Below are positions 5,007 through 47,122 of a DNA stretch of 64,000 nt, piece after piece. A program made the position numbers and the translations under genes. The notes beneath the pieces were generated by a model, which worked only from the letters and a program-made list of their open reading frames with translations, did no database searches and was not told where the DNA came from. The stretch comes from Candidatus Onstottus arcticum (GTDB lineage: Bacteria > Acidobacteriota > Blastocatellia > UBA7656). The first letter of the stretch is position 1; every line of letters begins with the position of its first letter. The stretch lies in NCBI GenBank assembly GCA_038040485.1, contig JBBPIE010000013.1:84209-148208 (forward strand). Direction: 5' to 3'.

Positions 5007-5547
5007 TAGATTGCTACGCCTCCTCGACTCCCGTATTGAACGTCATCGGATTTGTGTTATCGACCGATGTTGCGATTTTTGCTTTGATAGTATGCTTCAA
5101 CGGTCAGTATCGTTCAAGCCTTCTAAGCGTTGGAAGATGGAACGAAGACATCGCCGCCCCCCGGCTTTTGAGCGGTCGCTTTTCAGGAAGACCGCAAGGT
5201 GCTCGCGCTTAATATTGAAGGGCGAGCACGACAGCTTAGCTTGAGGTGTCGCTGATGCAACGGAACTCTCTTTCGGCTGAGAGAGCGCGGCAGGAGTTTC
5301 GGCGCACGTGGCTGTCTATTCCTCGCTTCGTTAAGCTTAAAGGCAAGGCTGAACTCTACACTTAGGGCTAGGGTGTGTCAAGGATTGCAAAAGCGCGTCA
5401 GGCAGGTCGACTACGATTGCCTCAACGACGGGATCCGAGGAATATCGAGCATGGCCAAAGTTACACGTCTGGGGAGTTTTGCGATTGCGTCGCCTAACCA
5501 TTGAACTCGCGCGCCCTCGCGTATAGGATCGGCTACAAGACTCTCAA

Positions 5548-6459
5548 ATGAAAGGTTTGGTGCACATGATGAGCCAACTAACACCCCCCTACCCTCTGAT
5601 TTATGATGGACTCTGCGAAGGTCAAGTCATTCCCTTTCTCGGTTCAGGAGCTTCGCTTGGTGGTCGAGAGAAGGACGCGAAGTGGGAGGAAGGCGTAGCA
5701 ACATATCTTCCGACAGCAAGCGAACTAGCGGACTATCTGGCCGACAAGACGGTGTTCCCTAAAGGCGAACCGCGCGACCTCGCGAAAGTGGCCCAATACT
5801 CGAACGCTGTTGGTGGACGCAACTGGCTCGACCAAAAACTGTACAACATCTTTAAGGTCAACTATCAACTCACATCGCTGCACAACTTTCTCGCCGGCCT
5901 GCCCTCACCGCTTTTGATTGTCACCACGAACTATGACGACCTCATTGAGCGTGCTTTTGAAATCAAAAAGCGTGCATATGATCTGGTAATCCATACGACT
6001 CACCCGGACTACAGTGGCAATCTCCTGTGGTGGCCGCACGGCAAACGAAAGCCGCGCGAGGCGGTACCGAATGAATTGGACATTGATCTCAGCGCGGTCG
6101 CAGTGATCTATAAGATGCACGGTGCAGTCGATCGCCGCGATCCAGCGCGCAGTCAGTATGTCATCACCGAAGATGATTACATCGACTTTCTCACTCGCAT
6201 GACTTCAGACAGCGCTATTCCCGCAATATTTTCTCAGGCATTCCAACAACGGCCCTTTTTGTTCCTTGGCTACGGTCTGCGGGACTGGAACCTGCGAGTA
6301 GTCTTGAACAAAATCGAGAAGGATATGCAGAGACCGGGAGATATCACCTCTTGGGCAATTCAGCATGATCCCTCCCCGTTGGAGCGGTTATTTTGGCAAA
6401 AGCGAGATGTGCAGGTCTATGACATGACGATTGAGGAGTTTGTGGCGAAACTCCTCTAG
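5548..6459 (+). CDS. SIR2-like (SIR2_2 family) protein, putative NAD+-consuming effector
   Basis: FLGSGAS, TTNYDDLIE, MHGAV and LFLGYGLRD motifs matching the SIR2_2 (PF13289-type) signature; GC visibly lower than the flanking genes. Confidence 0.8.
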   Translation: MKGLVHMMSQLTPPYPLIYDGLCEGQVIPFLGSGASLGGREKDAKWEEGVATYLPTASELADYLADKTVFPKGEPRDLAKVAQYSNAVGGRNWLDQKLYNIFKVNYQLTSLHNFLAGLPSPLLIVTTNYDDLIERAFEIKKRAYDLVIHTTHPDYSGNLLWWPHGKRKPREAVPNELDIDLSAVAVIYKMHGAVDRRDPARSQYVITEDDYIDFLTRMTSDSAIPAIFSQAFQQRPFLFLGYGLRDWNLRVVLNKIEKDMQRPGDITSWAIQHDPSPLERLFWQKRDVQVYDMTIEEFVAKLL

Positions 6460-6489
6460 CATTACGAACCAAAATACCGGGATGCAACG

Positions 6490-9117
6490 ATGACGATGTC
6501 GGAAGCTCAGCGCGGCTCACCTTACCTGGGTCTCATACCATACGACGAACAAGACGCGCCCTTCTTCTTTGGGCGCGAGAAAGAGACGCGGATCATCACG
6601 GCTAACTTGTTCGCCTCGCGGCTGACGCTGTTGTATGGCGCGAGCGGAGTCGGCAAGTCGTCGGTCCTGCGGGCTGGCGTCGTCCACCAATTGCGCCCAC
6701 GCAAAGACGTCCTTGCAGTGGTGTTCAGCGACTGGCAGAACGACCCGCTCACGAAGCTCAAGACCGCGGTTGCTAAGGCATCGTCGGACGCCACCGACAA
6801 GAGTGATCCGCTGCCGGATTCCTCATCGCTGGCCGAATACCTGGCAGGGTACAGCGCAAGACTCAATGGCCGCTTGATGATCATCCTCGATCAGTTCGAG
6901 GAGTATTTCCTCTATCACGCGCAACAGGACAGTCAAGGCACGTTCGACGTCGAGTTTCCGCGCGCGGTCAATCGCCCGGGCTTGCGTGTCAATTTTCTCA
7001 TCTCCATACGCCAGGATGCCTTGGCGGAATTGGATCGTCGTTTCAAAGGGCGCATCACCAATCTCTTCAACAACCGCCTGGAAGTCAAACACCTCAGCCG
7101 CGAAGCAGCAAAAGCAGCAATTGAGAAACCCATAGATGAATACAATAGCCGTTACGTGACAGAAGGCGAGGAGTTCAGCATCGAACCGGATTTGGTCAAC
7201 GAGGTTCTGATCGAGCTTCAGGAGGACGGCGCCTCTCAAGCACCTCACAAGCAAGTTGACTTCAGGAGCGGGAAACGCGAAGCGCTCATTGTAACCCCCT
7301 ACCTGCAACTGCTAATGGCCCGCATATGGGAGAAGGAAATAGAAAACAACTCGCGCGTCCTGCGGTTGAAGACGCTAAAGGGCCTCGAAGGTTTGCGGAA
7401 CATAGTTCAGGTTTACTTGAACAATGCAATGGATGCGCTATCTCCCAGGGAGCGAGAGATCGCGGCGGATATGTTCGACTACCTGGTCACTCCATCGGGG
7501 ACAAAGATCGCATACATGGCATCCGATCTGGCCATAAAGACCAAGAGCGGGCCGGAGCAGCTTAAGCCCGTGATGGATAAACTCTCCACCGATTTTCGTA
7601 TTTTGCGCTCAGTAGACCCGCCGCTCGACCGACCAAACGAGTTACGTTATGAGGTGTACCACGACGTGCTTGCGGTTGCGGTTTTAATTTGGCAAGAGGA
7701 ATACCGGCGGAACCAGGTGGATGCCGAAGCCAAGAAGAAGGCGAAAGAACAACAGCGCCAAGCCGAGGAGAAAGCAAGGGCTGAAGAGCAAGCAAAGGCT
7801 AACGCAATCCTGCGGCGATGGCTTTGGGCGCTGGCGTTCATGACTCTGTTGGCGATGAGCGCTTCGGTGATCGCGTATAAGCAATCCAGGAATGCACGTG
7901 CTAGTGAGCAGAAGGCGCTGGATGCTCAGAAGAACGCCGAGGAAAAACGGGAGTCGGCACTTCAGGTGCTCAGATTTTATGACGATGTCATACCTGTTTC
8001 CGATGGCTTGCTTTATGGAGGCAATCAGCGGGTGACCTTGGATCGGCTGGAAAGATCGCTGCAAGAGCATAAAGATAAGGGCAACCTCAGCGGAGAAGGA
8101 ATAACGCTCGCCAAGATCGGTGACTTTTACCATTTGCTCAACAAGGATACCGCGGCGCAGGAGTACTATGAACGCGCCTTGCCGATCTTAGAGAATGTTC
8201 TTGGAAAGGATCATCTTTACGTAGCCACCATCCTGGATAAATTGGCGACAGTTTACCTCAATCAGGGCAACTCGCTGAACTACTCCAAAGCTGAGCCGCT
8301 TGAAGAGAGGGCATTAATGATTCTGAAGCAAGCCCTGGGAGCGGAGAATGTCGACGTAGCCACTGCGCGCAACAATCTGGGGCTCATCTACCTCAACTGG
8401 GGCAAGTACGCCGAGGCCGAGCCGCTTTTCAACGAGGCAATCGATATTGACCTGAGGATTCATGGGAAAAACGATGTTGAGGTAGCCAATGGCCGAAACA
8501 ACCTGGCCCTGCTCTACCTCAAGCAGGGCAGGTATGCAGAGGCCCAGTCTCAGTTTGAGCAGGCACTCGACATCTGGAAGAAGAATCTAGGCGAGGAGAA
8601 TACGACTGTAGCGGATGGTCTCACCAACCTGGCTGAGGTCTACCGCAAACAGGGGCAGTACATTGAAGCGGAGCCGCGCGCAAGAAGAGCATTTGAGATT
8701 TGGGAGAAGCAAGCCTCGGCGCCCGACGATCCCGATTTGGCTCAAAGCTTAAACATCCTGGGAATGATCTATAGCGATGAAGGTAGATTCTCCGAAGCCG
8801 GGCCGCGTCTCAAACGAGCCTTAGCGATCCGTGAGAAAGCTCTTGGGCTCGAACATGAAAAGCTGGCAATCAGCCTCAACGCGCTGGCAGTGCTTTCTTA
8901 CAGGCAAGGCAAGAACGCCGAAGCAGAGCAGTTTTTCAAGAGAGCCCTCAAGATTCGCGAGAGCGCGCTGGGGCCAGATCATCCCGATGTGGCGGAGACC
9001 CTTCGAGACTATGCGACGCTGCTGCGCTCGAGCGGTAGGGAAGCTGAAGCTGCAGTCATGGACGCCCGTGCAGAAGCCATCCGGACCCGGCACGCAGAAG
9101 AGAATCGAAGAAACTGA
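6490..9117 (+). CDS. nSTAND-type P-loop NTPase with an internal TM helix, a charged coiled-coil and C-terminal TPR repeats
   Basis: N-terminal SPYLGLIPYDEQDAPFFFGREKE motif followed by Walker A GASGVGKSSVLRAG; K/E/A-rich segment, hydrophobic helix WLWALAFMTLLAMSASVIAY, then at least six TPR_10/12-like repeats; 30-bp gap after the SIR2 gene. Confidence 0.75.
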   Translation: MTMSEAQRGSPYLGLIPYDEQDAPFFFGREKETRIITANLFASRLTLLYGASGVGKSSVLRAGVVHQLRPRKDVLAVVFSDWQNDPLTKLKTAVAKASSDATDKSDPLPDSSSLAEYLAGYSARLNGRLMIILDQFEEYFLYHAQQDSQGTFDVEFPRAVNRPGLRVNFLISIRQDALAELDRRFKGRITNLFNNRLEVKHLSREAAKAAIEKPIDEYNSRYVTEGEEFSIEPDLVNEVLIELQEDGASQAPHKQVDFRSGKREALIVTPYLQLLMARIWEKEIENNSRVLRLKTLKGLEGLRNIVQVYLNNAMDALSPREREIAADMFDYLVTPSGTKIAYMASDLAIKTKSGPEQLKPVMDKLSTDFRILRSVDPPLDRPNELRYEVYHDVLAVAVLIWQEEYRRNQVDAEAKKKAKEQQRQAEEKARAEEQAKANAILRRWLWALAFMTLLAMSASVIAYKQSRNARASEQKALDAQKNAEEKRESALQVLRFYDDVIPVSDGLLYGGNQRVTLDRLERSLQEHKDKGNLSGEGITLAKIGDFYHLLNKDTAAQEYYERALPILENVLGKDHLYVATILDKLATVYLNQGNSLNYSKAEPLEERALMILKQALGAENVDVATARNNLGLIYLNWGKYAEAEPLFNEAIDIDLRIHGKNDVEVANGRNNLALLYLKQGRYAEAQSQFEQALDIWKKNLGEENTTVADGLTNLAEVYRKQGQYIEAEPRARRAFEIWEKQASAPDDPDLAQSLNILGMIYSDEGRFSEAGPRLKRALAIREKALGLEHEKLAISLNALAVLSYRQGKNAEAEQFFKRALKIRESALGPDHPDVAETLRDYATLLRSSGREAEAAVMDARAEAIRTRHAEENRRN

Positions 9118-9144: not shown

Positions 9145-10149
9145 TTAAGGGATTGTCGGGGGCGGCACCTGGATTAATGGCTTCTCCCCCCCTCCGCAGC
9201 CGATGATACAGAAGGTCCCGAAAGCAATGGCTGCCACTACCAGAAGTTTGTTTCGCGGTGTCCAAAATCCCGGAATCGTAATATGCCCGGTCCATCGTGG
9301 AACAGTTGAGCCTGGAGCATTCGCAGTGATGTCCGACGAGTTTGGCGAGCCGCCAGCAGTGAATGTTACGGTAACCACCCCTTCAATATCGTCAGTCGGT
9401 CTTGTGATACTCTGTGACCCGATTTTGCCGATGTTCTTTTTGACGGTTATCAGGACCGGTTGGCCGCGCACCGGCTTGCCATTGCAGGTGTACTGCAAGT
9501 TGATATTTTGAGCGGTCCCGCGTTGCACTCTAAGGCGGTCGGGCGCCGGTCCGGTTACGCGCCGATTACCGTCGATTGTTACTGAACGGATCGCGCAATT
9601 GATCTGGCTTGATTCAGCCTCGAGTCTTACCGTGCCGCTCCCAGCGTCGATTACCGGGTGACCGTTCCGAACCGCAATGCGAAAGCTTGCTCCGCTGGAG
9701 GATGTGTACGCAGAGCCGCAAGTCTCGATGTAGGCGATGGCCTCTTGCTGTAGTTTGACCATCATATCCCCGACGAGGAGCGTGGCGATCAGGACGGGGC
9801 GTTGAGGATCATCCGTGGGCATAGTCAATTGCGTTGCGAGCCTCACTACTGCGCCTGGTGTGAGTCTGACCTGGCCGATTGAGTCCAGCATCACACACGC
9901 TGTTGAATCGTCGGACGCTCGCAGCAACTCGCCGCCCCAGATCGGCTGCTCCCCATAAGCCGCGCGGCCGTTGATCGATATCTCGCCTAGTGAATAGACC
10001 TTGCCGATAGGAGCGAACGCGACGGCACGAACCCGAAATGGTTTGCCAATGCTGAGGTCGTCTGCGCGAGCCACTCCACTCGCACTAAGGCTCACGATCA
10101 ACGTCGCAACCGAGACCAGCCGAGATAATCGAAGACGCTGTTTCGTCAT
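9145..10149 (-). CDS. Secreted protein with FecR-like domain and C-terminal hydrophobic segment
   Basis: Signal peptide; GE.L...DDSTA.V.LDS.G.VRL.PGAVVRL pattern resembles the FecR domain; 4-bp overlap with the upstream vWA gene. Confidence 0.4.
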   Translation of the reverse strand: MTKQRLRLSRLVSVATLIVSLSASGVARADDLSIGKPFRVRAVAFAPIGKVYSLGEISINGRAAYGEQPIWGGELLRASDDSTACVMLDSIGQVRLTPGAVVRLATQLTMPTDDPQRPVLIATLLVGDMMVKLQQEAIAYIETCGSAYTSSSGASFRIAVRNGHPVIDAGSGTVRLEAESSQINCAIRSVTIDGNRRVTGPAPDRLRVQRGTAQNINLQYTCNGKPVRGQPVLITVKKNIGKIGSQSITRPTDDIEGVVTVTFTAGGSPNSSDITANAPGSTVPRWTGHITIPGFWTPRNKLLVVAAIAFGTFCIIGCGGGEKPLIQVPPPTIP

Positions 10150-13061
10150 CTCCGTTTCCCCTTTCGCTCCGCGGCCCCTCGCAAATTGCTGCCTGATCCG
10201 CCAGTTCCGGTAAGAGTTCCTCCAGGGTCAGGTGCTCCGATACTGCCGGCTGGATTCATGCGCTTCAGCGGTGGCAAAACAAGCGTCGTGTCAGATGTTT
10301 GGCGAACCGCCTGATTGTTGGCTTGACCGCAAGGGAACTCACAGCACGTAGCAGTGTTGTCCTGTCCCTTGCCACGAACTGTCACCTTAACAAACCTGGT
10401 CTTGGGGTGCTCATTCGCGTTCGAGAACCTCTGGATAACCTTTAAGCTCTGGCCCGCTCGTTTTGTCGCAGCCGTCGGAGGCGGTGGATTGACGGCTTGC
10501 GTGATCACGCCCGCAAGGGATGCAGTGTCATTGTCTACCGGAACCGTTATGCACTTTCCATTGTCAACGAATGCGAATGCGAAAACCGCTTCCACAATAT
10601 CCAACGGATTAGAGTCAAAGACGTAGAAGGTGACTTCGAATATGTCACCCGAACGAGTCAGTGTCGGAGCCGGATGATCTTGCGTCCCATCTGAATTGAT
10701 CAGAATTACCTGCGGCACTATGTGGGCGAGAATGTTGAGCGAAACTTCCCCGGCATCACTGCTGAATTTGAGCCTGCCCTGAATGAATTCCGGCAAAAGA
10801 AGTTTTGGCGAAGAGGTAAACCCGGGGACGAATCCGGGAATGGCAGGCTTGAATGTTAAGTCAAACGTCTGCGTATCGCCTGGCGCAATTTCCATTGGAA
10901 ACTCTTTTTGCGGACCTTGAGGCACAACGGAGAAAACCCCGCTCTTGTCTTTTTTCTCCTTGTTGCCCACCATTCGGAAGAGCTTGAAGTCCAAGTTGGC
11001 AAGCAAGACACAGCCGGTATTCGTGATCGTAAATGACAACGATCGACTTTCGCCCACATTGATGTCTCTAAAGTTAAGGGAGCTCGTGCTCAACACCGCT
11101 TTTGCGGAACCAGAGCAGATGGTTAGTTCCGATGTGTTTCCGTTCGAGTCTGTGAGGGTGGCTGTGTAGAAGCCGCTCGGAGAAACCGGCAGCCCGCTTG
11201 CGCTGAAACTGTTGCCGACAAGAGGCGCGCTGCCAAGGAAGATCACATTATCCAGAACAACTTTGTCCGTCGTACGTCTGAGATTGGCAGCGAATATCTC
11301 GACCGTCCCGCCACCAAGAGGAGGGCTGTTGATTTGACCTGCTATCGTCACCGTTGCAATAGCGGCGTTTCCATTGGAAGCATTCTGTACAACAACGGTG
11401 TCCGGGAAATTAAGGAGCGTGTTAGGCCCTTCATCCGCGTCTCCAACATCGTTGAGAGTTGGTCCGTCGCAAACGCTCGCAGGCTCGTTCGCCGGGAAAG
11501 GCTCGGAGCTGCCCAGGTCGATCGGAGTTTCGCTACCGGAAATATCGTTCATCGAGATCGTGTTTCCAACGTTGTGAGTTACGGCGTTGAATACACCGGG
11601 CCGTGGATCGAGCACACAGATACCTGCCTGGATGTTGTTCTCGAGTTTGTTGAGCTCGATCCGATTGAATCCCGTGTTATCGGAGGGGCAGACCGGCTGG
11701 ATGACAATTCCTGCGTGAAGGAACCCTGTGATTCTTAGGCCGCGCACGACGTCGCGGTTGGAGCGGATCATTATTCCATCGTCGAGTTGGAACTGCCCAT
11801 CAATCGACACCCTCCGATCACAAACGATCGCCTCGTCTTGCGATGTCTCCGCGCAAGTCACCTTAACCGGGATTGAAGGCGCGCAACCTGCTGCGCACCC
11901 GCAGATGGTGATGTCGGGCGCGGTGAGCGGAGGCAACGGTTGGCTCGGACGGATCGTCATCCCGGAGCTGAACGTTATTGTTGTGCGTCCGCCGTTGGCG
12001 TTTGCCGTCTCGATCGCCTGGCGCAGTGAACGTGGGCTTCCCTCCACGAACGGGGTACCTGGAGCGGTATCAGCAGTGGTAGCCACAGTGAGGCTGCGCA
12101 ACGCGATGTTGCCCCTGAGCGCCCTCCGAACGAAGTCCGCAAATTGTTTCACCTGACATCCGCACTCCTCCTCAAAGGTCGCCGTGTCGACTACACTGTG
12201 TTTCGTTTTGGGTTTGTTGCACTCGGTTGGGACGATGACCTCTACTACGCCGGGTAGATCGGCGGGCGGAGAGGGGAAGGCTAAACGTTCGACGAGTAGT
12301 TTGGCATCTTCGAGCTCTTTGGTCTCGGTCGGAACGCCAATTAAGATCACGTCCAGCTCGGCCTCACCTGCCCTTACGCGCGCTAACTGGGATGCCAGGA
12401 CGCCGTTAACACGGTCGTCGTCATTGTTGCTAGGCTCGCCGTCGGTTGACAGGATGAACACACGGCGAGCGCCTGAACCTGCAACCTGGTCGGCTTGCGA
12501 GATCGCTTTGCCGAAGTCAGTCTCGCCGGCTGGGCACGGGGGGATGTTGCTGTCGAGATCCGGACAAACCACCAGCGGTTTGATCCGGTCGGCTGCGGAC
12601 ATGGCATCCGCGTCTGAGCCTATCCGCGGCGTGAGGGGCAGGATGATCGAAGCCTCGCCATCGAACAGTACCGCGCCCACCGAAACCGAGCCGTCGCGAG
12701 GTATCACTGAAGGGTCGAGCAGCGCGCGCCGTACTCCCTCGATTTCAACGTTGTAGGTTTGCCCTCGCCCATCGCTGCTGGTGCCCTCGTGCGGACCCTC
12801 GATCTTGTTTTGCATGCTTCCCGAGCGGTCGATGATGAAGACAAGATTGGTAAGCGCTTGCGTGTCCGGACAGTCTGGAGGTTGCTCCGCTGCATGATAC
12901 CCACCGAGCCGCGGGCCCATCATCGTCACCGCGAGCCCCATCGAGATTGACAATCCAACGCAAGCGATCAATCGAAAACCTCGCAACTTGTTTCGCGTGC
13001 GACCGCGGCTTGTTTGCGCCTGTGGCAAGGCGCCGGCGATCGGGGAATCGAGCATACTCAT
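10146..13061 (-). CDS. Large secreted vWA-domain protein with parallel beta-helix-like repeats and C-terminal beta-sandwich domains
   Basis: MIDAS motif LVFIIDRSGSMQ; N-terminal TM/signal; GIVI, NRIELN..AGICV and NTISMNDISG repeats suggest a beta-helix. Start placed at ATG 13061 (MSMLDS), which has a GAGGAGG Shine-Dalgarno 8 nt upstream; the ORF track extends to 13244. Confidence 0.7.
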   Translation of the reverse strand: MSMLDSPIAGALPQAQTSRGRTRNKLRGFRLIACVGLSISMGLAVTMMGPRLGGYHAAEQPPDCPDTQALTNLVFIIDRSGSMQNKIEGPHEGTSSDGRGQTYNVEIEGVRRALLDPSVIPRDGSVSVGAVLFDGEASIILPLTPRIGSDADAMSAADRIKPLVVCPDLDSNIPPCPAGETDFGKAISQADQVAGSGARRVFILSTDGEPSNNDDDRVNGVLASQLARVRAGEAELDVILIGVPTETKELEDAKLLVERLAFPSPPADLPGVVEVIVPTECNKPKTKHSVVDTATFEEECGCQVKQFADFVRRALRGNIALRSLTVATTADTAPGTPFVEGSPRSLRQAIETANANGGRTTITFSSGMTIRPSQPLPPLTAPDITICGCAAGCAPSIPVKVTCAETSQDEAIVCDRRVSIDGQFQLDDGIMIRSNRDVVRGLRITGFLHAGIVIQPVCPSDNTGFNRIELNKLENNIQAGICVLDPRPGVFNAVTHNVGNTISMNDISGSETPIDLGSSEPFPANEPASVCDGPTLNDVGDADEGPNTLLNFPDTVVVQNASNGNAAIATVTIAGQINSPPLGGGTVEIFAANLRRTTDKVVLDNVIFLGSAPLVGNSFSASGLPVSPSGFYTATLTDSNGNTSELTICSGSAKAVLSTSSLNFRDINVGESRSLSFTITNTGCVLLANLDFKLFRMVGNKEKKDKSGVFSVVPQGPQKEFPMEIAPGDTQTFDLTFKPAIPGFVPGFTSSPKLLLPEFIQGRLKFSSDAGEVSLNILAHIVPQVILINSDGTQDHPAPTLTRSGDIFEVTFYVFDSNPLDIVEAVFAFAFVDNGKCITVPVDNDTASLAGVITQAVNPPPPTAATKRAGQSLKVIQRFSNANEHPKTRFVKVTVRGKGQDNTATCCEFPCGQANNQAVRQTSDTTLVLPPLKRMNPAGSIGAPDPGGTLTGTGGSGSNLRGAAERKGKRR

Positions 13062-13787
13062 AATCCAAGCCTCCTCAGTTGAACTGCGTGGGCTGATGCG
13101 ACTATAGGGACCGTCCCGGGACTCGGCTATGCGCATCACCAAAGCAACGCAGTTGTCAAACGAAGCACTCCTGCCTTTGACGCAAAGGCAAACCGTCAGC
13201 TTTGTAACTGTGCCTATCCTTAATTGACGAAATCTGCCGGGCAATCAATGCAAATACCCGCGCGGAAGCGGGACCTCCCCAGGGACGTGCGCGACGACCG
13301 GTCCATTTGGAGTGGGCAGGGCCGCTCCTCGAGGAAGGACCAAAAAACGCGCGTCGTCTTCCAGTGCACCGCGGGCAACGCAACTTGTCGGCTCGCGCGA
13401 AAAGCTGACGCGCACCCAAGATTGGTTTTGACCTTGCGACCGCAAAACACCTCAGGTATACTCGCGACCTCACGTATCAAAAGGAGTTAAGCCGTCGACT
13501 ATTATCCAAGCTCGGTCGCGAACGATAAGCCAGAAGCCTAAGCAAATTCACTTTGATTATTAAATCGATCGACTTTGAGTTATTATGCCGTTGATTCTGT
13601 ATTCGCAGCGCAGGAAGCCTCGAAGGGCAACCCCCTTGCAAATCATTTTCTGAGCCAACCGACATTTCGCCGCAGGCTCGCCGGCTGATGTTGGGATGAA
13701 GATACGCTCGTTCAGTCTTGCCTCGCACGGTCCGCAACGCAGCACCCGAGACCGTGCGCATTAGAGAAACTAGAGGTTCCCTTCGTT

Positions 13788-16700
13788 ATGGTTCGTGGGT
13801 TCTTCCTGACTGCCATCGCATTGCTGCTTTTCACAACGCCTAATGCGTTCGGCTCCGCTATTGCCGGCCGAGCGGCGGAGGCTGCGCCTTACACACTTGT
13901 GCTCGTCGATGGCAGCTCGAATGCGGAACTTGCCGCGGCGCGCGATTTTATCGTCGCACAGGGCGGCACGATCGCCGTTGTACTTCCGCCGCACGCGATA
14001 CTGGGATGGGTTTCAGCGGAGACGGGCGCGCGGATTCTTGGCAAGCACGGTATCAAGTCGATTCACCGCACCGTGGTGGACCAACGCTCAGCCGGCTTTT
14101 CGGATCGCGAGACCCAGACCGCGATTGGTCTGTTTAACGACATCGTCTCGGGACGGCGCGCGCGCCAGGCCAAGCGAGAAGCAAAAAAACTCTCCGCAAA
14201 GGCACTCCCGGGTCTGACCGACTGCGCGCAGCCGCATCCGGCCATTAACAAGGATGACTTTATTCGCAACCTTCGGCTGATGGGCGCGGAAGACTCAATC
14301 AAGGGAATCCAGTCGACCGTCACGCCTCAGTTCTTCTCCAACAGCGATTCCATGGACGGAACAGTCGCGGTCGCCGTCTTTTTGATCGAGAGCACCGGCG
14401 AGATCGATCCCAATACTTACTCTTGGAGCCAAGCCGATCAGACCACCGCAATCGCGCAAGTCCTCGACGGCCTGAACTGGTGGGTCGAGCAATCAAGGGC
14501 GTTCAACCTCGCCCGCCCGCTTCAGTTTACGTTGGTTCAATACACGGCTTCGAATCCAGCTTGCCAGCAGCCATACGAACCCATCTTGCACCCCGGCCGC
14601 GATGCGAATCTGTGGATAGATCGAATCATGAACAACGTTGGAGCAACGGGGGGTGATACGTTTGTGAAGGTCGCCGCCTTTGATCAACGGCTGAGAGACG
14701 AGAACCGAACCAACTGGGCTTACTCGATGTTTATCGCGTACAACCCGCCCCCGGCGCCGGCGGCTTTCACAGACGGGCGAGCTTCCTGGGCGTACATTGG
14801 CGGCCCGCACGTGAATTCGCTGTTTCGAAGCTTCGGCTGGCCGCTCTCGCGAATTGCTAGTCACGAAGCCGGACACATCTTTTTCGCGTGCGACGAGTAC
14901 TTTCAACCAGGATACCAAACCTGTAGCTGCACCTGTGCGCCTGAGTTGAGACCTGACGCGCTCAACGGCAATTGCCAGGATGCGGCGTGCGGACTCAATT
15001 CTACCGGGTGCATGATGCGGCTCAATGAGTTGTCGCTCTGTCCGTTCACCGTAGCGCAGATCGGATGGACCGGCGCGGTTCCCAAACCCGCGCCGACTGC
15101 TCCTGTAGGAGTCGTCGCAACCGGGTCCTCACCCTCGCAAGTGAACTTGATCTGGTTAGACACATCGACCGTCGAAGACGGATTCCAGATAGAGCGGCGC
15201 GGCGGATCGACCGCCGAGTTCAGCCAGGTCGGCGTTGTAAGCGGTAACACCGTAAGCTTCGCCGACTCCGGCGTGTTGGCGAACACAGCGTACGCCTATC
15301 GAATTCGCGCCTTCAACAACGCGGGCTCTTCACCTTACTCGAATGAAGCCGCGGTAGTGACGCCGTCAAGCCCCTCGGCGCTGTCAATCGCCACAACCAG
15401 CCTGCCGGACGCAACTGTTGGAGTGAGCTACAGCCGGACGCTAGTGGCAAGCGGAGGGCGGCCGGAATACGCATGGCTGGTCGAGAGCGGCGCGCTGCCG
15501 CCGGGGCTTTCGATGTCGCAATCTGGCGGCATCTCGGGCACTCCGTCCACGGGCGGCACCTTCAACTTCTCTTTGCGAGTGACTGACGCCAACGGCGGCT
15601 CGGCTGCAAAAGCGCTTACGCTGGTGGTCAAGCCGGCAGCACCCCTAAGCATCACTTCCACCCAGCTTCCCAAAGCCTCGGTCGGCGCTACCTACAGCCA
15701 GAATCTGGGCGCCTCCGGAGGACAAACTCCTTACACATGGTCGATCCAGTCAGGGAATCTGCCTGAGGGAATGACGCTCAACCAAATCGGGGTGATTTCA
15801 GGAACACCCGAGCGGTCCGGCTCTGCGAGCTTCGTCTTGAGGCTTACTGACGCGACCGCCTCAAGCGTCTCAGCCACACTCTCGATCATCATCAACCCGT
15901 CGGCCTTAATCCTGAACCTGAATACCGCGTCCTTGCCCGACGCAATCGTCGGGCAAGACTATTCACAAACGCTCAATGCAGAGGGTGGCGATCCACCCTA
16001 TCGATTTGAGATCACGAGCGGGCGACTGCCCGAAGGCTTGCGGCTATCGAGTACGGGGGTGGTCTCCGGGAAGCCCACCGCACCCGGCGAGGTCGAGTTC
16101 GACCTTCGCGTCGCTGATCAGAGCGGACAGTCTGTGGCCAAGTCTCTATCGATAGACGTCGATCCGCCCCCTCAGTTCACCATACTGAGTCCGAGCCTCC
16201 TCCCTGTTGCGGCAGTGGGCGTTCCCTATCGACTCGAGTTCAAAGCAACTGCCGGGGCGCCGCCCTATGAATGGATCAAGAAGAAGAAGAAAAAGAAGTT
16301 TGGAGTCTTGCCCGACGGCTTGACGCTTTCAAAAGACGGAGTGTTGTCCGGCACACCGACAACACAGGGTACTTTTAATTTCACCTTGCGAGCGTTCGAC
16401 GCCAACGAAAAACTGGCGTCCAGTCCGTTCACTATTGAGGTTGGTCCGCCTCCGCCTCCGTTGGCGATAAGAACCGAAGCCCTTCCGCAGGCGCTGCAGG
16501 GCCTTCCCTATTCGGCGGCCCTCGAAGCGTTTGGAGGCATAGGTCCTTACACCTGGGAGATTGAAAGCGGAGCCGTGCCTGCCGGCTTAGTCATGAGCGC
16601 TCAGGGCGTTATCTCCGGGACAGCGGCATCGGCCGGCGTAGGAACTTTTACAGTTCGAGCCAAAGATACGCTTGGCACTTCGACTGTAAAATCGCTGTTC

Positions 16701-18401
16701 ATAACCGTAACCCTTCCGCCTCCTCCGCTGGTGATACTGACCGTGTCGCTGCCCGAGACGTCAGCCGAGAAGTTCTATTCCCAAACACTGTTCGCCAGCG
16801 GCGGCGTCCCTCCCTACGCGTGGACCATCTCGAGCGGCAGCCTGGCGGCCGGGTTGAATCTTTCCGCGGGTGGCACGCTTTCCGGGACGCCGACCGGCCC
16901 GGGAACCAGCGTCTTCGTTGTGCGTCTGACGGATTCCGCGCAGCAGTCAGTCACGCGGACGCTGGCCGTCACCGTCAAACCTGCGGACAAATTGGCGCCG
17001 TTCGGCGCGTTCGAGACCCCGGATTACGGCGCAACGCTCAACAACATCGCAACCGGAACCGGTTGGGCTTTGGACAATGTTGGAGTGGCGACTGTCGAAG
17101 TCATTCTAGACGGCCAGAAGGTCAGCGAAGGGGTCTACGGTTTAAGCCGTCCCGATGTCGGCTCCGTCTGGGGTAGCTTCCCCAACGCCGCGCGAGCGGG
17201 TTTCAGCTTCAGTCTCGACACGACCAGGTTCAGCAACGGCCAACACACGCTTGCCGTTCGGGTCCTGGACGCCGCGGGCAACGCAACTTTGATTGGAGCG
17301 CGCCCTGTACTCTTCCAGAATCAGGTTCTCATTGTCGTCACCACCAACGTGACGCGTGGCACGAAGAACCAGCCGTATAGTTTCCAATTGTTGGCGGCCA
17401 ACGGAAAGCCTCCTTACTCGTGGACGGTAAGTTCAGGTTCATTGCCCCCAGGGCTCTCGCTAAATCTTGCGGGCGTAATCTCGGGCACGCCCACCGTTGT
17501 CAACAACTTCACGTTCACAGTGCGCGTGACCGATTCGGTTGGAGCCGCGGCGCTGGCAAGCTTTTCGCTAACCATCTTGTCCGACATCCCGATTCTCAGA
17601 GTTCTAAGCTCGGGTCCGCAGACGCAGGGCCTCACCGGAGTTGCGTACTCTCAACAACTCTTCTTCACAGGCGGCGTGCCGCCCGTTGTCTGGAGTATGG
17701 GAACCGGTTCACTCCCGCCGGGACTGACCCTGGGCGGCGCATCGGGGATAATCTCGGGCACGCCAACGCATGTCGGGACGTTCAACTTCACCGTACGAGT
17801 GACCGACTCCGTGCAGACTACCGATGATTCAGATCCGATCTCGATCACCGTACTCCCGGGCCCGCTTCTTATCCTGACCACCGGCGATCTAACCAAAGGC
17901 ACCAAGGGCACGCCGTATTCGTTTGTGTTGCAGAAAGCCGGCGGAGCGCCGGCTTACACCTGGTCGCTCGCAAGCGGAGCGTTGCCTCCGGGTCTTGCGC
18001 TCAACGCCACGACCGGAGCTATCAGCGGCACGCCGACTCTGGATGGCGAGTTCACATTCACGGTCAAGCTCACCGATTCACTGCTCGTGAACGTCACGTC
18101 GGGGACTTTGAGGATCATCGTCGACCCGGCGCCGCTGGTGATCACCAGCGGGGGCGATCTGACGTCGGGCAAGCTCAACGTCAACTACTCGTTCCAGCTC
18201 CTGTTCACCGGAGGCAGAGCGCCGTACACATGGGCTCTCGCAACTGGAGCGCTTCCAACAGGACTGACGCTGGACACGGCAACCGGACTCATCTCGGGCA
18301 AGCCTACTGCAATCGGCACATTCACGTTCACGGTTAGCTTAACTGATGGCCAGCCGGTAACGGTGCAATCCCAAACGCTCAGGATAGCAATAACGCCGTG
18401 A
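13788..18401 (+). CDS. Giant secreted protein with a putative HEXXH zinc-metallopeptidase domain, an FN3 domain and about 12 He_PIG-type (putative Ig) repeats
   Basis: Signal peptide; SHEAGHIFFACDEY; FN3-like PSQVNLIWLD..YAYRIRAFN; about 95-aa repeats with consensus LP.A.VG..YS..L.A.GG.PPY.W.i.SG.LP.GL.L...G.isGTPT..G.F.FT.RVTD. Confidence 0.7.
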   Translation: MVRGFFLTAIALLLFTTPNAFGSAIAGRAAEAAPYTLVLVDGSSNAELAAARDFIVAQGGTIAVVLPPHAILGWVSAETGARILGKHGIKSIHRTVVDQRSAGFSDRETQTAIGLFNDIVSGRRARQAKREAKKLSAKALPGLTDCAQPHPAINKDDFIRNLRLMGAEDSIKGIQSTVTPQFFSNSDSMDGTVAVAVFLIESTGEIDPNTYSWSQADQTTAIAQVLDGLNWWVEQSRAFNLARPLQFTLVQYTASNPACQQPYEPILHPGRDANLWIDRIMNNVGATGGDTFVKVAAFDQRLRDENRTNWAYSMFIAYNPPPAPAAFTDGRASWAYIGGPHVNSLFRSFGWPLSRIASHEAGHIFFACDEYFQPGYQTCSCTCAPELRPDALNGNCQDAACGLNSTGCMMRLNELSLCPFTVAQIGWTGAVPKPAPTAPVGVVATGSSPSQVNLIWLDTSTVEDGFQIERRGGSTAEFSQVGVVSGNTVSFADSGVLANTAYAYRIRAFNNAGSSPYSNEAAVVTPSSPSALSIATTSLPDATVGVSYSRTLVASGGRPEYAWLVESGALPPGLSMSQSGGISGTPSTGGTFNFSLRVTDANGGSAAKALTLVVKPAAPLSITSTQLPKASVGATYSQNLGASGGQTPYTWSIQSGNLPEGMTLNQIGVISGTPERSGSASFVLRLTDATASSVSATLSIIINPSALILNLNTASLPDAIVGQDYSQTLNAEGGDPPYRFEITSGRLPEGLRLSSTGVVSGKPTAPGEVEFDLRVADQSGQSVAKSLSIDVDPPPQFTILSPSLLPVAAVGVPYRLEFKATAGAPPYEWIKKKKKKKFGVLPDGLTLSKDGVLSGTPTTQGTFNFTLRAFDANEKLASSPFTIEVGPPPPPLAIRTEALPQALQGLPYSAALEAFGGIGPYTWEIESGAVPAGLVMSAQGVISGTAASAGVGTFTVRAKDTLGTSTVKSLFITVTLPPPPLVILTVSLPETSAEKFYSQTLFASGGVPPYAWTISSGSLAAGLNLSAGGTLSGTPTGPGTSVFVVRLTDSAQQSVTRTLAVTVKPADKLAPFGAFETPDYGATLNNIATGTGWALDNVGVATVEVILDGQKVSEGVYGLSRPDVGSVWGSFPNAARAGFSFSLDTTRFSNGQHTLAVRVLDAAGNATLIGARPVLFQNQVLIVVTTNVTRGTKNQPYSFQLLAANGKPPYSWTVSSGSLPPGLSLNLAGVISGTPTVVNNFTFTVRVTDSVGAAALASFSLTILSDIPILRVLSSGPQTQGLTGVAYSQQLFFTGGVPPVVWSMGTGSLPPGLTLGGASGIISGTPTHVGTFNFTVRVTDSVQTTDDSDPISITVLPGPLLILTTGDLTKGTKGTPYSFVLQKAGGAPAYTWSLASGALPPGLALNATTGAISGTPTLDGEFTFTVKLTDSLLVNVTSGTLRIIVDPAPLVITSGGDLTSGKLNVNYSFQLLFTGGRAPYTWALATGALPTGLTLDTATGLISGKPTAIGTFTFTVSLTDGQPVTVQSQTLRIAITP
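16278..16298 (+). repeat. (AAG)n/(AAA) purine-only tract encoding KKKKKKK inside a He_PIG repeat
   Basis: aagaagaagaagaaaaagaag read directly from the sequence; it replaces the x-SG segment present in paralogous repeats. Confidence 0.9.
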
Positions 18402-20966: not shown

Positions 20967-23900
20967 ATGCAAAGACTGAATCTCAAGACAACTCACAAAC
21001 CCGTTAGGGATTACTACGAGGCGCTTCAGCAGTTCTCCAGGATTGGCGTCTCGCACGAGGGCGCAGTCCGAAGCGCCTTTCAATCTCTGCTCGAATCATG
21101 CGGCTCTCAGTTTGGTTGGAAGCTGGTTCCCGAATGGCCGATAAAGAAATCGCGCCTCCGGGTCGATGGCGCTCTCGTTGACGCCTTCAATCTGACACAC
21201 GGTTTCTGGGAGGCCAAAGATCAACACGATGATCTTAAGGTCGAAGTTAAGCGCAAGTTCGCTGCGGGCTATCCCCGAAACAACATCCTCTTTCAAGCGC
21301 CCGAGCGAGCGATCCTCTATCAGGACAGCCGGCACGTACTCGACGAAGACATCACGAAACCCGAAGCTCTCGTAGAAACTCTCAAACGCTTTGTCGAGTA
21401 CACGCCTCCGGCATTCGAGGAGTGGGAAGAGGCCGTCGCGCAGTTTCAAGTCAAAGTGCCGGAGCTTGCCGCGGCGTTGGTTAAGCTCATCGATGAAGAG
21501 AGGAAAACAAATAGCCGGTTCATCGAGGCATTTACCGGGTTCTTGGAGCTGTGCCGTCAGTCGATAAACCCCAATCTTTCGGAACAGGCTGTTGAAGAAA
21601 TGCTCATCCAGCACCTGTTAACCGAGCGCATCTTCCGCACCGTTTTCGACAATGCCGACTTCACTCGCCGCAACGTCATCGCAGCCGAGATTGAAAAAGT
21701 CATAGACGCGCTAACCTCTCATTCCTTCAGCCGCGAGGCGTTCTTAAAGAGCCTCGATCACTTCTATAAAGCGATTGAAACGACTGCCGCGACGATCGAC
21801 GACTTCTCGCATAAGCAGCACTTCTTGAATGCCGTCTACGAGAAGTTCTTTCAGGGATTCTCGGTCAAAGTCGCCGACACGCACGGCATCGTCTACACGC
21901 CTCAGCCAATCGTGAACTTCATGGTTCGTAGCGTCGAGGACATCCTTGAAAAGGAATTCGGCAAGACACTCAGCAGCCGGGACGTCCATATTCTCGATCC
22001 GTTTGTGGGCACAGGAAATTTCATCGTGAGGGTGATTCAGGAAATCAAAAAGACCGCGCTGCCTCACAAGTACAAACACGAGCTTCATTGCAACGAAGTG
22101 ATGTTGTTGCCTTACTACATAGCCTCAATGAACATCGAGCACGAGTATTTCGAGAGGACCGGAACCTACGAACCGTTCGAAGGAATTTGCCTCGTTGATA
22201 CCTTCGAGTTGGCTGAGGGTAGTCAGACACGGCTTTCATTCATGACCGCGGAAAACACGGCTCGCGTGGAACGTCAGAAACGCAGCCCGATATTTGTCAT
22301 TATCGGGAATCCTCCTTATAACACAGCTCAGTTGAATGAAAACGACAACAACAAGAATCGCAAGTACAAGGTCATGGATAAGCGTGTCTCGGAAACCTAC
22401 GGGAAAGATTCAAAGGCTACGCTTGTGAGTAAACTGAGCGATCCTTATGTAAAGGCAATCCGTTGGGCATCAGATCGAATAGGTGAGGAAGGGATAGTGG
22501 CATTTGTGACGAATAGTGGTTTCTTAGATCAGATCGCCTTTGATGGGATACGAAAGCACCTCGAGCAAGACTTTGATGAGATCTACATTTTTGATTTGGG
22601 CGGTAACGTCAGGAAGAACACGAAACTGTCAGGGACCACTCATAATGTCTTTGGTATACAAGTAGGTGTCAGCATCAATCTGCTCGTCAGAAAAAGGACC
22701 GGCCGACCCTCTAACGGCGCGACAATCTACTATGCGCGAGTAGACGAATTCTGGCGCAGAGAAAACAAGTATCGGTATCTCGAGGAGTCAGGGAACAGAA
22801 CTAATATTGATTGGCAGGTCGTTCACCCTGAGGGGAATAATACGTGGCTTACAGAGGGACTTCACACTGACTTCAACTCGTTCCTACCGATAGCAACAAA
22901 GGCGACAAAACAAGCAAAGCGGTTGAATCCTGAGGTCGTCTTCAAGACTTACAGCCTTGGTGTGGCAACAAATCGCGACGAATGGGTCTATGATTTTAGG
23001 CAAACTGATCTAGAGCAGAAGATCCGGACCCTTGTCCAGAATTATACCCTTGAATCTGCGCGATACGCTCAGGAGAGCGAGATTCACAACATTGATGAAT
23101 TCGTGAATAACAACCCCAGATTTCTAAAATGGACTGACAGGCTGAAGGAAGCTCTACAGCAAAGAAAAGTACTTAGATTTGATCCAACACAAATCCGTCA
23201 TTCGCTATATCGCCCCTTCGTCAAAAAGTTTCTGTATTTCGATCATCTTCTCAATCAAAGAAGATACCGGCAGCATATTGTCTTCCCTAACCCCGAGTCT
23301 GAAACCGAAAACCAAGTGATCTGTGTTGGCGGCTATGGTCGAAAGGTGTTTTCTGTTCTGTTGAGTAGTTGCATTCCAGATTTGAACTTTTACGCTGATC
23401 CACAACAATCTTTCCCCGTGTACACCTATGACGAGGACGGCACCAACCGCAAAGAGAACATCACTGACTGGGTGCTTGAGAAGTTCCGCTCGCACTACGA
23501 TGAATCATCAATCACCAAGTGGGACATCTTTCACTACGTCTATGCCCTTCTCCATCATGCCGTCTATCGTGAGCGTTACGCCGCAAACCTCAAGCGGGAG
23601 CTTCCCCGTATTCCGTTCGCTCCCGGCTTCCGAGCCTTCGCAGACGCGGGCGCGCGGTTGGCAGACATCCACGTGAACTACGAAGAGCAGCCGGAATATC
23701 CACTCGACAAGATCGAAGTACCCGGCGCGCAACTCGACTGGCGAGTCGAGAGGATGCGGCTGACGAAAGACAAGACTGAAATCATCTACAACGACTTCTT
23801 GCGGCTGTCAGGGATTCCGCTGGAGTGTTTCGAGTATCGCCTGGGCAATCGCTCGGCGTTAGAGTGGGTGATCGACCAGTATCAAGTCTCAACAGACAAG

Positions 23901-47120: not shown

Positions 47121-47122
47121 CG

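Follow-up and report, generated by a model that had tools for sequence, protein, structure and literature searches.

A conserved SIR2 and nSTAND1 gene pair in Candidatus Onstottus arcticum: a candidate membrane-spanning receptor with a separate NAD+-consuming effector

Introduction

Is a SIR2-family gene that directly precedes the gene of a large STAND-type NTPase a functional partner of that NTPase, and do the two make up one of the known NAD+-depleting defence systems or something different? This question is raised by a locus at positions 5548-9117 of a 64,000-nucleotide stretch of the genome of Candidatus Onstottus arcticum (Acidobacteriota, Blastocatellia; assembly GCA_038040485.1, contig JBBPIE010000013.1, positions 84,209 to 148,208), the whole of which we refer to as the window. 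A sequence-only reading of the window had proposed that the pair is a defence or conflict cassette with a membrane-anchored NTPase, acquired horizontally and hitherto uncharacterised. Here we report that, on comparative sequence evidence, it is very secure that SIR2 and nSTAND1 are functionally linked, and we argue, tentatively, that the products may act as a membrane-spanning receptor of an NLR-like kind (NLR, nucleotide-binding leucine-rich-repeat) that activates a SIR2 NADase.

Results

SIR2 and nSTAND1 are paired across phyla

The two genes, and the parts of the NTPase protein, are arranged as follows.

5548-6459, plus strand: SIR2_2-family gene of 303 aa (maximal open reading frame, ORF) with a single SIR2 domain; predicted NAD+-consuming effector
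6490-9117, plus strand: nSTAND1-TM-TPR gene of 875 aa, encoding an NTPase, a K/E-rich coiled coil, a transmembrane (TM) helix and a TPR array
6490-7818, plus strand: nSTAND1 NTPase module, predicted cytoplasmic, residues 1-443 (Pfam, alignments and AlphaFold2 (AF2) model)
7819-7878, plus strand: single TM helix, residues about 444-463 (hydropathy and homologues)
7879-9117, plus strand: K/E-rich helix followed by a TPR_12/TPR_10 array (residues about 540-870), predicted extracytoplasmic (Pfam)

The intergenic gap measures 30 bp (6460-6489). We scanned the contigs of one genome per species with a SIR2 profile and took the loci of the best 80 of 245 relatives, a set that spans at least 10 phyla, with hosts among the Acidobacteriota (Pyrinomonadaceae, Blastocatellia, Bryobacteraceae, Thermoanaerobaculia), Chloroflexota, Actinomycetota, KSB1, Gammaproteobacteria, Desulfobacterota, Myxococcota, Planctomycetota and Armatimonadota as well as a Heliomicrobium. 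An nSTAND1 N-domain homologue was present in all 80 of these SIR2-selected loci: it lies directly downstream of SIR2 on the same strand, with a gap of at most 250 bp, in 73 loci, directly upstream in three, one gene away in three and in degenerate form in one. Measured against their counterparts in the window, SIR2 and NTPase identities are correlated (Spearman 0.60, p 1e-8), and in some relatives the two are joined in a single polypeptide. A HMMER search of 1.84 billion cluster representatives returned 572 SIR2 clusters (at 50% identity) with E <= 1e-30, the best of which, at 53-58% identity, are proteins of 820-1100 aa with a C-terminal SIR2; in 14 of the 17 long SIR2 matches the N-terminal part is an nSTAND1-like NTPase and a TM helix is missing, and nSTAND1-SIR2 fusions also occur in five loci (L034, L041, L059, L038 and L064). 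Because neighbourhood conservation, co-divergence and gene fusion all point the same way, the functional link is very secure, and the pairing proposed at the outset is borne out by co-occurrence, fusions and correlated divergence alike.

All-against-all clustering of the 1012 ORFs of the 80 loci produced no third family-wide gene: only SIR2 and nSTAND1 are found in more than 11 loci, the next commonest flanking families being ABC transporters, present in 11 loci, and CHAT-domain proteins, in 10, and the general module therefore consists of two genes. SIR2 relatives from different phyla interleave by identity (Anaerolineales 69%, KSB1 63%, Actinomycetota 59%, Acidobacteriota 60-66%), which suggests horizontal spread over long time scales. 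The SIR2 homologues number roughly 4,300.

Several loci elaborate on the basic pair. L038 (7425-13898) and L064 (7795-14349) have a 'daisy-chain' of a SIR2 gene, a TM-less nSTAND1-SIR2 fusion and then an nSTAND1-TM-WD40 or nSTAND1-TM-TPR gene; the SIR2 upstream of the TM-bearing STAND protein is here the C-terminal domain of the preceding STAND protein. A gene of about 470 aa that has no Pfam match stands between SIR2 and nSTAND1 in three Pyrinomonadaceae loci (L036, 10991-12409; L037, 2423-3829; L039, 11043-12356), and the recurrent CHAT-domain proteins, about 1150-1210 aa long, lie upstream of the pair in their 10 loci, the example in L036 having weak alpha/beta-hydrolase-type matches. Apparently pseudogenised copies (L047, L060, L062, L070) were not used as evidence of turnover; several stem from long-read metagenome-assembled genomes (MAGs), where frameshifts may be assembly errors.

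The SIR2 protein resembles defence NADases

Since its homologues begin M-x-Q-L-x-P-P-Y-P, the SIR2 protein probably starts at the ATG at 5566 or 5569 rather than at 5548. Its translation contains the motifs GSGAS (residues 32-36), TTNYDD (126-131), KMHG (189-192) and GYGLRD (241-246), all of which the sequence-only reading had pointed out, and matches SIR2_2 in Pfam with E 3.9e-28 (98.8 bits against a cut-off of 24.5). In a family alignment with 20 homologues, G32, G34, A35 and S36 of the NAD-binding loop (Rossmann GxGxS) are invariant, as are N128 and H191. A PDB profile search identified ThsA (6lhx, E 4e-16) as the nearest solved structure, followed by DSR2 and KomC, and TTN128YDD and KMH191G of the window protein align with TTN112YD and KMH152G of ThsA; the best PADLOC matches are likewise the SIR2 parts of ThsA, PDC-S25 and Dsr2. 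Neither Pfam nor PADLOC detected a SLOG, adaptor or sensor domain within the 303 aa, leaving a bare SIR2 domain. The protein is thus a SIR2 of the defence-NADase type and a predicted NAD+ hydrolase, and the earlier assignment as an NADase-type effector agrees with its closest solved relatives and with the conservation of the catalytic Asn and His.

The partner is an nSTAND1 NTPase with a family-wide TM helix

The 875-aa protein opens with the motif SPYLGLIPYDEQDAPFFFGRE at residues 10-30 (PYxGLxPYxExDAxFFFGRE type), matches nSTAND1 in Pfam (PF20703) over residues 11-429 (E 8.2e-43, 147.9 bits against a cut-off of 27.1) and has a TPR_12 match with E 1.1e-90 in seven stretches and a TPR_10 match with E 1.9e-53. 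Alignments of 56 and 46 sequences showed G53, G55, K56 and S58 of the Walker A motif (GASGVGKSS, residues 50-58) to be invariant, as is D134 of Walker B (D134-E138), while F136, E137, E138, R174 and the MHD-like winged-helix residues H391-D392 are invariant or nearly so. The structure of the NTPase, modelled by AF2 with database proteins (predicted local distance difference test (pLDDT) 91.4), consists of a P-loop nucleotide-binding domain, a helical domain and a winged helix, after which a helix of about 50 residues (392-442) leads into the TM segment. A PDB sequence search with the NTPase domain gave no match and the fold was found by structure search, with Orc1/Cdc6, the ZAR1 and wheat resistosomes and NLRP2 as top Foldseek matches. 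The nSTAND signature, Walker A motif, K/E-rich helix, TM stretch, TPR array and 30-bp gap described by the sequence-only reading are all present in these ORFs, and the profile searches that it had suggested returned SIR2_2, nSTAND1 and TPR matches. The TPR array is a candidate ligand-binding or partner-binding domain.

The TM helix of the window protein is the hydrophobic stretch WLWALAFMTLLAMSASVIA / WLWALAFMTLLAMSASVIAY, which is preceded by ...AILRR and has a Kyte-Doolittle score of 1.86 over 19 residues. Such a helix directly follows the NTPase in nearly all locus-derived homologues and is present in about 115 of 120 database homologues (112 strong, 3 weaker and Gly/Ala-rich); the proposed membrane anchor is therefore real and a property of the family. 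The 15-residue flanks of the TM helix contain on average 5.6 K+R on the N side (typically RRLRR) versus 2.6-3.1 on the C side, the N side having the higher count in 66 cases versus 3 and in 99 versus 4. From this charge bias, together with the NTPase having no signal peptide and requiring ATP, we predict an N-in/C-out topology for the family, with the NTPase inside and the C-terminal domain outside; for the window protein the topology is taken over from the family pattern, since its own charge bias is neutral.

The C-terminal domains fall in line with this prediction. WD40 accounts for 38 of 69, followed by TPR, several unannotated families and enzymes. Variants with one TM helix carry SPOR, CAP, PF11860 muramidase-like, SH3, peptidase C39, S8 plus FGE-sulfatase or astacin-like domains, and TM-less variants carry a second SIR2 (5 cases), HisKA/HATPase (3), a receiver (1) or TPR-S plus patatin (1). 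The TM-linked domains are typical of extracytoplasmic proteins, whereas the TM-less ones need cytoplasmic cofactors or partners, a division that supports the predicted topology. The WD40 protein of L056, an apparent exception to the TM rule, has a weaker TM segment with RRR before it. In one variant (P0202) the protein has a TM helix and yet is fused to an FHA domain, a type that is usually found in the cytoplasm.

A TIR gene takes the place of SIR2 in a second cassette of the window

A second cassette (42972-48685) with the same plan is found further along the window.

47123-48685, minus strand: TIR-domain protein of 520 aa (TIR_2, E 1e-14) with the catalytic-Glu motif SEWCLRELDEF (WCLRE)
42972-47120, minus strand: nSTAND1-TM-WD40 protein of 1382 aa (nSTAND1, E 8e-98)

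The TIR gene is directly upstream of the nSTAND1-TM-WD40 gene, 2 bp away, and the 1382-aa protein is made up of an NTPase, a coiled coil, a TM helix (after RRKEIKRTR), another coiled coil and WD40 repeats; its nSTAND1 N-domain is only 24% identical to the SIR2-linked nSTAND1. PADLOC v2 returned no match for either the TIR protein or the 1382-aa nSTAND1 protein. Because TIR is directly upstream of this second nSTAND1, a different family of NAD-consuming effectors holds the same position relative to a TM-nSTAND1, and the occurrence of two NAD-consuming enzyme families in one position is a pattern of effector swapping as is typical of immune systems. ARAGORN called a 96-nt tRNA-Glu(ttc) at 44136-44231 (plus strand), inside and antisense to the nSTAND1-WD40 ORF; the call is probably a false positive, as Rfam finds no tRNA there.

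Two envelope genes accompany the TPR subclade

Downstream of the pair, and convergent with nSTAND1, lie two genes for predicted envelope proteins.

9145-10149, minus strand: Ig-like envelope protein of 334 aa, composed of a signal peptide, all-beta Ig-like domains in tandem, a TM anchor at the C-terminal end and a short PPPxIP tail
10146-13244, minus strand: vWA envelope protein of about 970-1030 aa (maximal ORF 1032) with a signal-anchor, a vWA domain and an Ig-like C-terminal region

The two overlap by 4 bp, which suggests an operon, and the vWA gene probably starts near 13061. Sequence inspection and a TM scan show that the vWA protein has an N-terminal signal-anchor helix, an intact DxSxS motif (IDRSGSM) and a beta-rich Ig-like C-terminal region, and its Pfam matches are VWA_2 (E 3.6e-6) and a weak Ig-like match. 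The Ig-like protein, characterised from an alignment of six homologues, gave an AF2 model with a pLDDT of 80.6, for which Foldseek found the Ig-like domains of S-layer SbsC, intimin and cadherin, generic matches without a functional clue. Its family is tiny (43 clusters in 5.8 billion proteins), and many of the contigs concerned coincide in length with those of the TPR-type nSTAND1 matches; a metagenome scan with the Ig-like protein yielded 6 loci, most of them cut at contig ends.

Among 13 distinct TPR-type loci, 10 have both vWA and Ig-like genes, one has the Ig-like gene only (L096) and two have neither (L063, L064); in all 74 non-TPR loci both are absent, with no locus retaining the Ig-like gene alone. 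The vWA/Ig-like pair thus represents accessory genes specific to the TPR subclade, and the unit in the window probably comprises four genes, more than SIR2 and nSTAND1 alone, so that the vWA gene, treated earlier as a flanking gene, probably belongs to the system with which it is co-conserved. Adjoining the vWA gene, at 13788-18401 on the plus strand, is a gene for a 1537-aa He_PIG/PKD/Big Ig-like-repeat protein that is syntenic in L081 (73% identity).

The order of the genes varies among the sister loci. The vWA/Ig-like genes are convergent in the window, L081, L082 and L083 (the last with unrelated flanks, BipA and GatB), and upstream and co-directional in L058; L084, L086, L098 and L099 have the co-directional order vWA, Ig-like, Trypco1, CHAT-SIR2, nSTAND1-TM-TPR, and L097 has vWA, Ig-like, CHAT-SIR2 and nSTAND1-TM-TPR without Trypco1. 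In this last, co-directional group of TPR-clade loci SIR2 is fused to a CHAT protease, and Trypco1/Pepco adjoins it in most. L089 (7053-13406), which is syntenic with L099 (amylase ... HslV/HslU), retains the vWA and Ig-like genes, and convergent to them a 778-aa TPR-like protein with about four N-terminal TM helices replaces Trypco1, CHAT-SIR2 and nSTAND1-TPR; this looks like a module displacement, which would again tie the envelope pair to a membrane-anchored TPR module.

The locus is syntenic in a relative and only modestly low in GC

The related locus L081 shares with the window the order sppA, rpsA, the pair, Ig-like, vWA and the He_PIG protein gene. Identities between the two loci are 92% for SIR2, 91% for SppA and 88% for RpsA versus 68% for the TPR array, 67% for the NTPase, 59% for the Ig-like protein and 38% for the vWA protein; vWA, Ig-like and NTPase have thus diverged far more than SIR2. 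This uneven divergence, along with tandem paralogous pairs that differ in their C-terminal domains (L028, L029, L040, L042, L067) and the presence of three loci in one Chloroflexi MAG, gives signs of a diversifying receptor repertoire. At the DNA level, SIR2 and the first 660 nt or so of nSTAND1 (window 5568-7150, L081 9081-10661) are 89% identical, compared with about 80% for the rpsA/sppA region, a difference that could reflect recombination or constraint. L081 also encodes a 157-aa XRE-type HTH_3 protein between rpsA and SIR2 (7968-8441, minus strand), of which there is no trace in the window (5007-5547), where the intergenic region is about 1.1 kb shorter.

The GC content is 0.518 for SIR2, 0.54-0.555 for nSTAND1 and 0.59 for rpsA, against a window mean of 0.570 with a standard deviation (sd) of 0.033 in 600-bp windows, and the dip at the pair amounts to about 1-1.5 sd. 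The claim that the pair is lower in GC than its flanks thus holds relative to rpsA, but the dip is modest and the vWA gene is itself low (0.564, with stretches of 0.50-0.53). As the dip is modest and the context from sppA-rpsA to He_PIG is conserved in L081, whose nSTAND1 N-domain is about 67% identical, recent horizontal acquisition does not follow from GC, in which the sequence-only reading had seen a hint of horizontal origin. The strongest compositional anomaly of the window lies elsewhere, at about 21600-23400, where GC drops to 0.44-0.49 versus the mean of 0.57, far deeper than at SIR2/nSTAND1. An Rfam scan of the window gave no match, and a promoter and terminator scan around the cluster gave nothing above shuffled expectation.

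The pair departs from the known SIR2 and STAND systems

We compared the locus with the defining features of the systems to which it might belong. Closest in logic is Avs5 (SIR2-STAND, AVAST type 5), which likewise combines a STAND NTPase with an effector of the SIR2 NADase type and with repeats at the C-terminus as the sensor. Activation of SIR2 through oligomerisation is the likely shared logic, Avs5 being known to form filaments (PMC11897194). Unlike Avs5, a soluble cytoplasmic protein that contains SIR2 as its own N-terminal domain, the window has SIR2 as a separate gene 30 bp upstream, with the NTPase starting at residue 11 of its own ORF; moreover, this NTPase belongs to the nSTAND1 clade, and a TM helix separates it from repeats that are predicted to lie outside. 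No Avs model in PADLOC was matched, the 875-aa protein having only a generic TPR match and a weak mad8 match. Given the predicted extracytoplasmic location of the TPR array, the supposed parallel with cytoplasmic Avs TPR sensors that bind phage proteins does not fit.

Thoeris ThsA, the closest solved SIR2 relative, has identical catalytic Asn and His motifs, but the window SIR2 lacks the SLOG domain for sensing glycocyclic ADP-ribose (gcADPR) and has a STAND NTPase as its partner. No ThsB partner adjoins SIR2, whose neighbours are rpsA and nSTAND1, and the TIR gene of the window is 38 kb away and paired with another nSTAND1. DSR1 and DSR2 combine SIR2 with a large C-terminal sensor in more than 1000 aa; the window protein has 303 aa and matches only the SIR2 part of the Dsr models. 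The HerA match that would be expected for SIR2-HerA was not found among the neighbours in Pfam or PADLOC, and neither MoxR nor VMAP, which mark the vWA-MoxR ternary systems (Kaur et al. 2020), was found among the window neighbours or in the sister loci; the vWA protein of the window bears an N-terminal signal anchor. Kaur et al. 2020 do not mention SIR2. Since the defining features of each were looked for and are absent, the locus is, judged by its sequence, not an Avs, Thoeris, DSR, SIR2-HerA or vWA-MoxR ternary system.

Pepco (Trypco1/2)-protease modules resemble the TPR-clade sister loci, which encode Trypco1/Pepco and CHAT-SIR2 directly upstream of TM-nSTAND1-TPR (Trypco1 and a protease gene in L084-L087, L098 and L099). 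Pepco has been shown experimentally to be a protease-activated pore-forming death effector, and 'transmembrane STAND ATPases' are named among the sensors associated with Pepco-linked proteases; SIR2 and vWA are not mentioned in that preprint (10.1101/2025.11.14.688446). Pepco/Trypco and the protease are absent between 5007 and 13244 of the window, and because this version has neither Pepco nor CHAT, SIR2 alone is its candidate effector.

The bNACHT/nSTAND1 conflict systems (Kaur/Aravind; Kibby et al.) share the constant NTPase core with variable receptor-type C-termini (TPR, WD40, FGE), but their descriptions concern fusions to N-terminal effector or adaptor domains (effector-associated domains (EADs), Death-like) and do not include an obligate separate SIR2, the NTPase-TM-ectodomain topology or the vWA/Ig-like pair. 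The name nSTAND1 comes from Kaur et al. 2021 (PMC8195603), and Kibby et al. noted TM-containing C-terminal regions as an architectural class of bacterial NACHT proteins. The accessible part of a 2026 STAND survey lists nSTAND among the known clades and does not discuss the SIR2 plus TM-nSTAND1 architecture (PMC13581612). Our full-text search found no paper describing the SIR2 plus TM-nSTAND1 pair, though such a paper may exist elsewhere, and in the literature searched the earlier statement that the combination lacks experimental characterisation holds.

In topology, the window protein is analogous in function, though not homologous, to PknB-type transmembrane Ser/Thr kinases, Toll-like receptors and plant receptor kinases. 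In these, one TM helix joins a cytoplasmic module that is catalytic or oligomerising to a repeat or ligand-binding domain beyond the cytoplasm, and signals pass from the outside in; the cytoplasmic module of the window protein differs from theirs in being a STAND ATPase with an NADase partner.

Discussion

The best-supported model for the locus is that of a membrane-spanning NLR-like receptor that activates a SIR2 NADase; we hold it tentatively, at slightly under an even chance. The TPR array on the outer face would probably contact the vWA/Ig-like envelope proteins, or a ligand that they capture, and a change at the envelope would pass through the TM and coiled-coil segment to the NTPase, which would swap its nucleotide and oligomerise at the inner face of the membrane. 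The oligomer would then recruit or arrange the separate SIR2 into an active assembly, and hydrolysis of NAD+ would cause growth arrest or cell death, as abortive infection or another conflict-driven suicide. By analogy, the locus would work most like Avs5, in a split, membrane-spanning form. We infer the NADase activity, the activation by oligomerisation, the direction of signalling, the nature of the trigger and the role in defence.

Several observations weigh against this model. SIR2 is the constant and most conserved part of the system, as effectors seldom are and as a sensor or regulator might equally well be, and several of the family's C-terminal domains are enzymes (peptidases, patatin, SIR2, kinase), which fits a variable output as well as a variable sensor. 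The TM flanks of the window protein are themselves neutral (4 versus 4 K+R). The classic genomic hallmarks of defence systems are weak, as a related genome has the locus in a syntenic, stable form and viral contigs lack the family, the SIR2 profile having found in them no close relatives and only two distant SIR2s (23-25% identity). No integrase, transposase or tRNA flanks the cluster in the window, and the flanks elsewhere are mostly housekeeping or signalling genes (ABC transporters, sigma-54 activators, LpxA-like genes, kinases); the defence-island context for which the sequence-only reading had suggested a check is accordingly not seen. A PADLOC scan of 143 randomly chosen flanking ORFs, made without a background control, gave only scattered single matches (type III methyltransferase, Cas12f/TnpB-like, Csx1, ThsB-like, mad2/3), and neither SIR2 nor nSTAND1 matches a complete PADLOC v2 system. 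Finally, all homologous genome loci derive from uncultured MAGs.

Alternatively, the nSTAND1-TM proteins might be non-immune sensors of the envelope or environment, comparable to PknB-type kinases with extracytoplasmic TPR, WD40 or FGE domains, and SIR2 a regulatory NAD-dependent deacylase or ADP-ribosyltransferase that acts on specific targets rather than a suicidal NADase, with roles, for example, in envelope stress, in the assembly of surface structures with vWA and Ig-like proteins or in social or developmental behaviour. The stable, syntenic chromosomal context free of mobile elements and of a clear defence neighbourhood suits such a role, as do the fusions to histidine-kinase, receiver and FHA domains, which are ordinary signalling wiring, the surface-type accessory proteins and a SIR2 that evolves as slowly as rpsA and sppA (92% versus 88% and 91% identity to L081). 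Against it, all characterised proteins of the SIR2_2/ThsA-DSR2 branch, to which this SIR2 belongs, are NADases rather than deacetylases; the sister loci add modules of the death-effector type (CHAT protease and Pepco, patatin or a second SIR2), the window's second cassette has a TIR protein in the corresponding place, and the interleaving of SIR2 relatives from different phyla indicates horizontal spread. We therefore consider a non-immune signalling role unlikely, though a serious contender.

The direction of signalling could also be the reverse, with SIR2 and the NTPase sensing NAD+/ADP-ribose metabolites or a cytoplasmic cue of an invader, and the variable C-terminal domain delivering an output at the envelope, such as peptidoglycan hydrolysis, proteolysis or the remodelling or release of a vWA-Ig-like complex. 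That SIR2 and the NTPase are the constant part speaks for this, and so do the external enzymes of the variable part (S8 plus FGE, astacin-like, C39, muramidase-like PF11860, peptidase_M15_4 (PF13539)), the cytoplasmic effector-type domains (patatin, SIR2) of the TM-less forms and the C-terminal location of SIR2, the usual 'sensor' position, in the fusion proteins. Yet most C-terminal domains are classic ligand-binding STAND modules (WD40 propellers in 38 of 69, TPR or FGE in others), that of the window is a TPR array with no enzymatic domain, and the CHAT-SIR2 fusions beside Pepco put SIR2 on the effector side, so that an inside-out flow of the signal seems to us improbable.

A conventional cytoplasmic Avs-like sensor, in which the hydrophobic segment would be no true TM helix or a peripheral tether and the TPR array would bind a phage protein as in Avs1-5, is very improbable indeed. 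TPR arrays are, according to the 2026 survey, the commonest sensors of characterised antiviral STANDs (PMC13581612), and the window protein's neutral charge bias is compatible with this; but a stretch of about 20 hydrophobic, uncharged residues with flanking RRxRR is conserved in place in about 115 of 120 homologues, the charge bias across the family is strong, the presence of the TM helix tracks perfectly with extracytoplasmic- versus cytoplasmic-type C-terminal domains and PADLOC matched no Avs model. That the two genes are neighbours by chance and functionally unrelated is refuted by the comparative data, namely co-occurrence in 80 of 80 loci, an order kept across phyla, fusions and joint divergence.

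A further step beyond the model of a membrane-spanning receptor with a SIR2 NADase would be that these proteins are the first described bacterial outside-in NLR-like receptors, whose diversified ectodomains (WD40, TPR, FGE, peptidoglycan-binding) survey the envelope and trigger SIR2- or TIR-mediated destruction of NAD+, a proposal that we regard as possible, if on the doubtful side. The events surveyed might be the adsorption of a phage or the penetration of its tail, the action of bacteriocins, a contact-dependent attack or harm to a surface complex under guard, which in the window would be the fast-evolving vWA/Ig-like pair. To our knowledge, every prokaryotic STAND/NLR-like immune protein characterised so far is soluble and detects molecules of the invader inside the cell. 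If the C-terminal domain is truly outside, bacteria would wire NLR-type switches to extracellular or periplasmic sensing, permitting detection before genome injection or of threats other than phage, and an outside-in receptor of this kind would join surface sensing as in Toll-like receptors and receptor kinases to NLR-type oligomerisation and NADase effectors in one bacterial system. With this family the effector repertoire would also gain a split SIR2 (and TIR) NADase that acts in trans, and its naturally exchangeable ectodomains would help in studying how a signal crosses the membrane to a STAND oligomer. The family abounds in soil phyla that have received little study (Acidobacteriota, Chloroflexota, Actinomycetota) and whose immune systems are for the most part unexplored, and even if its role is not an immune one it would constitute a new class of transmembrane signal transducers.

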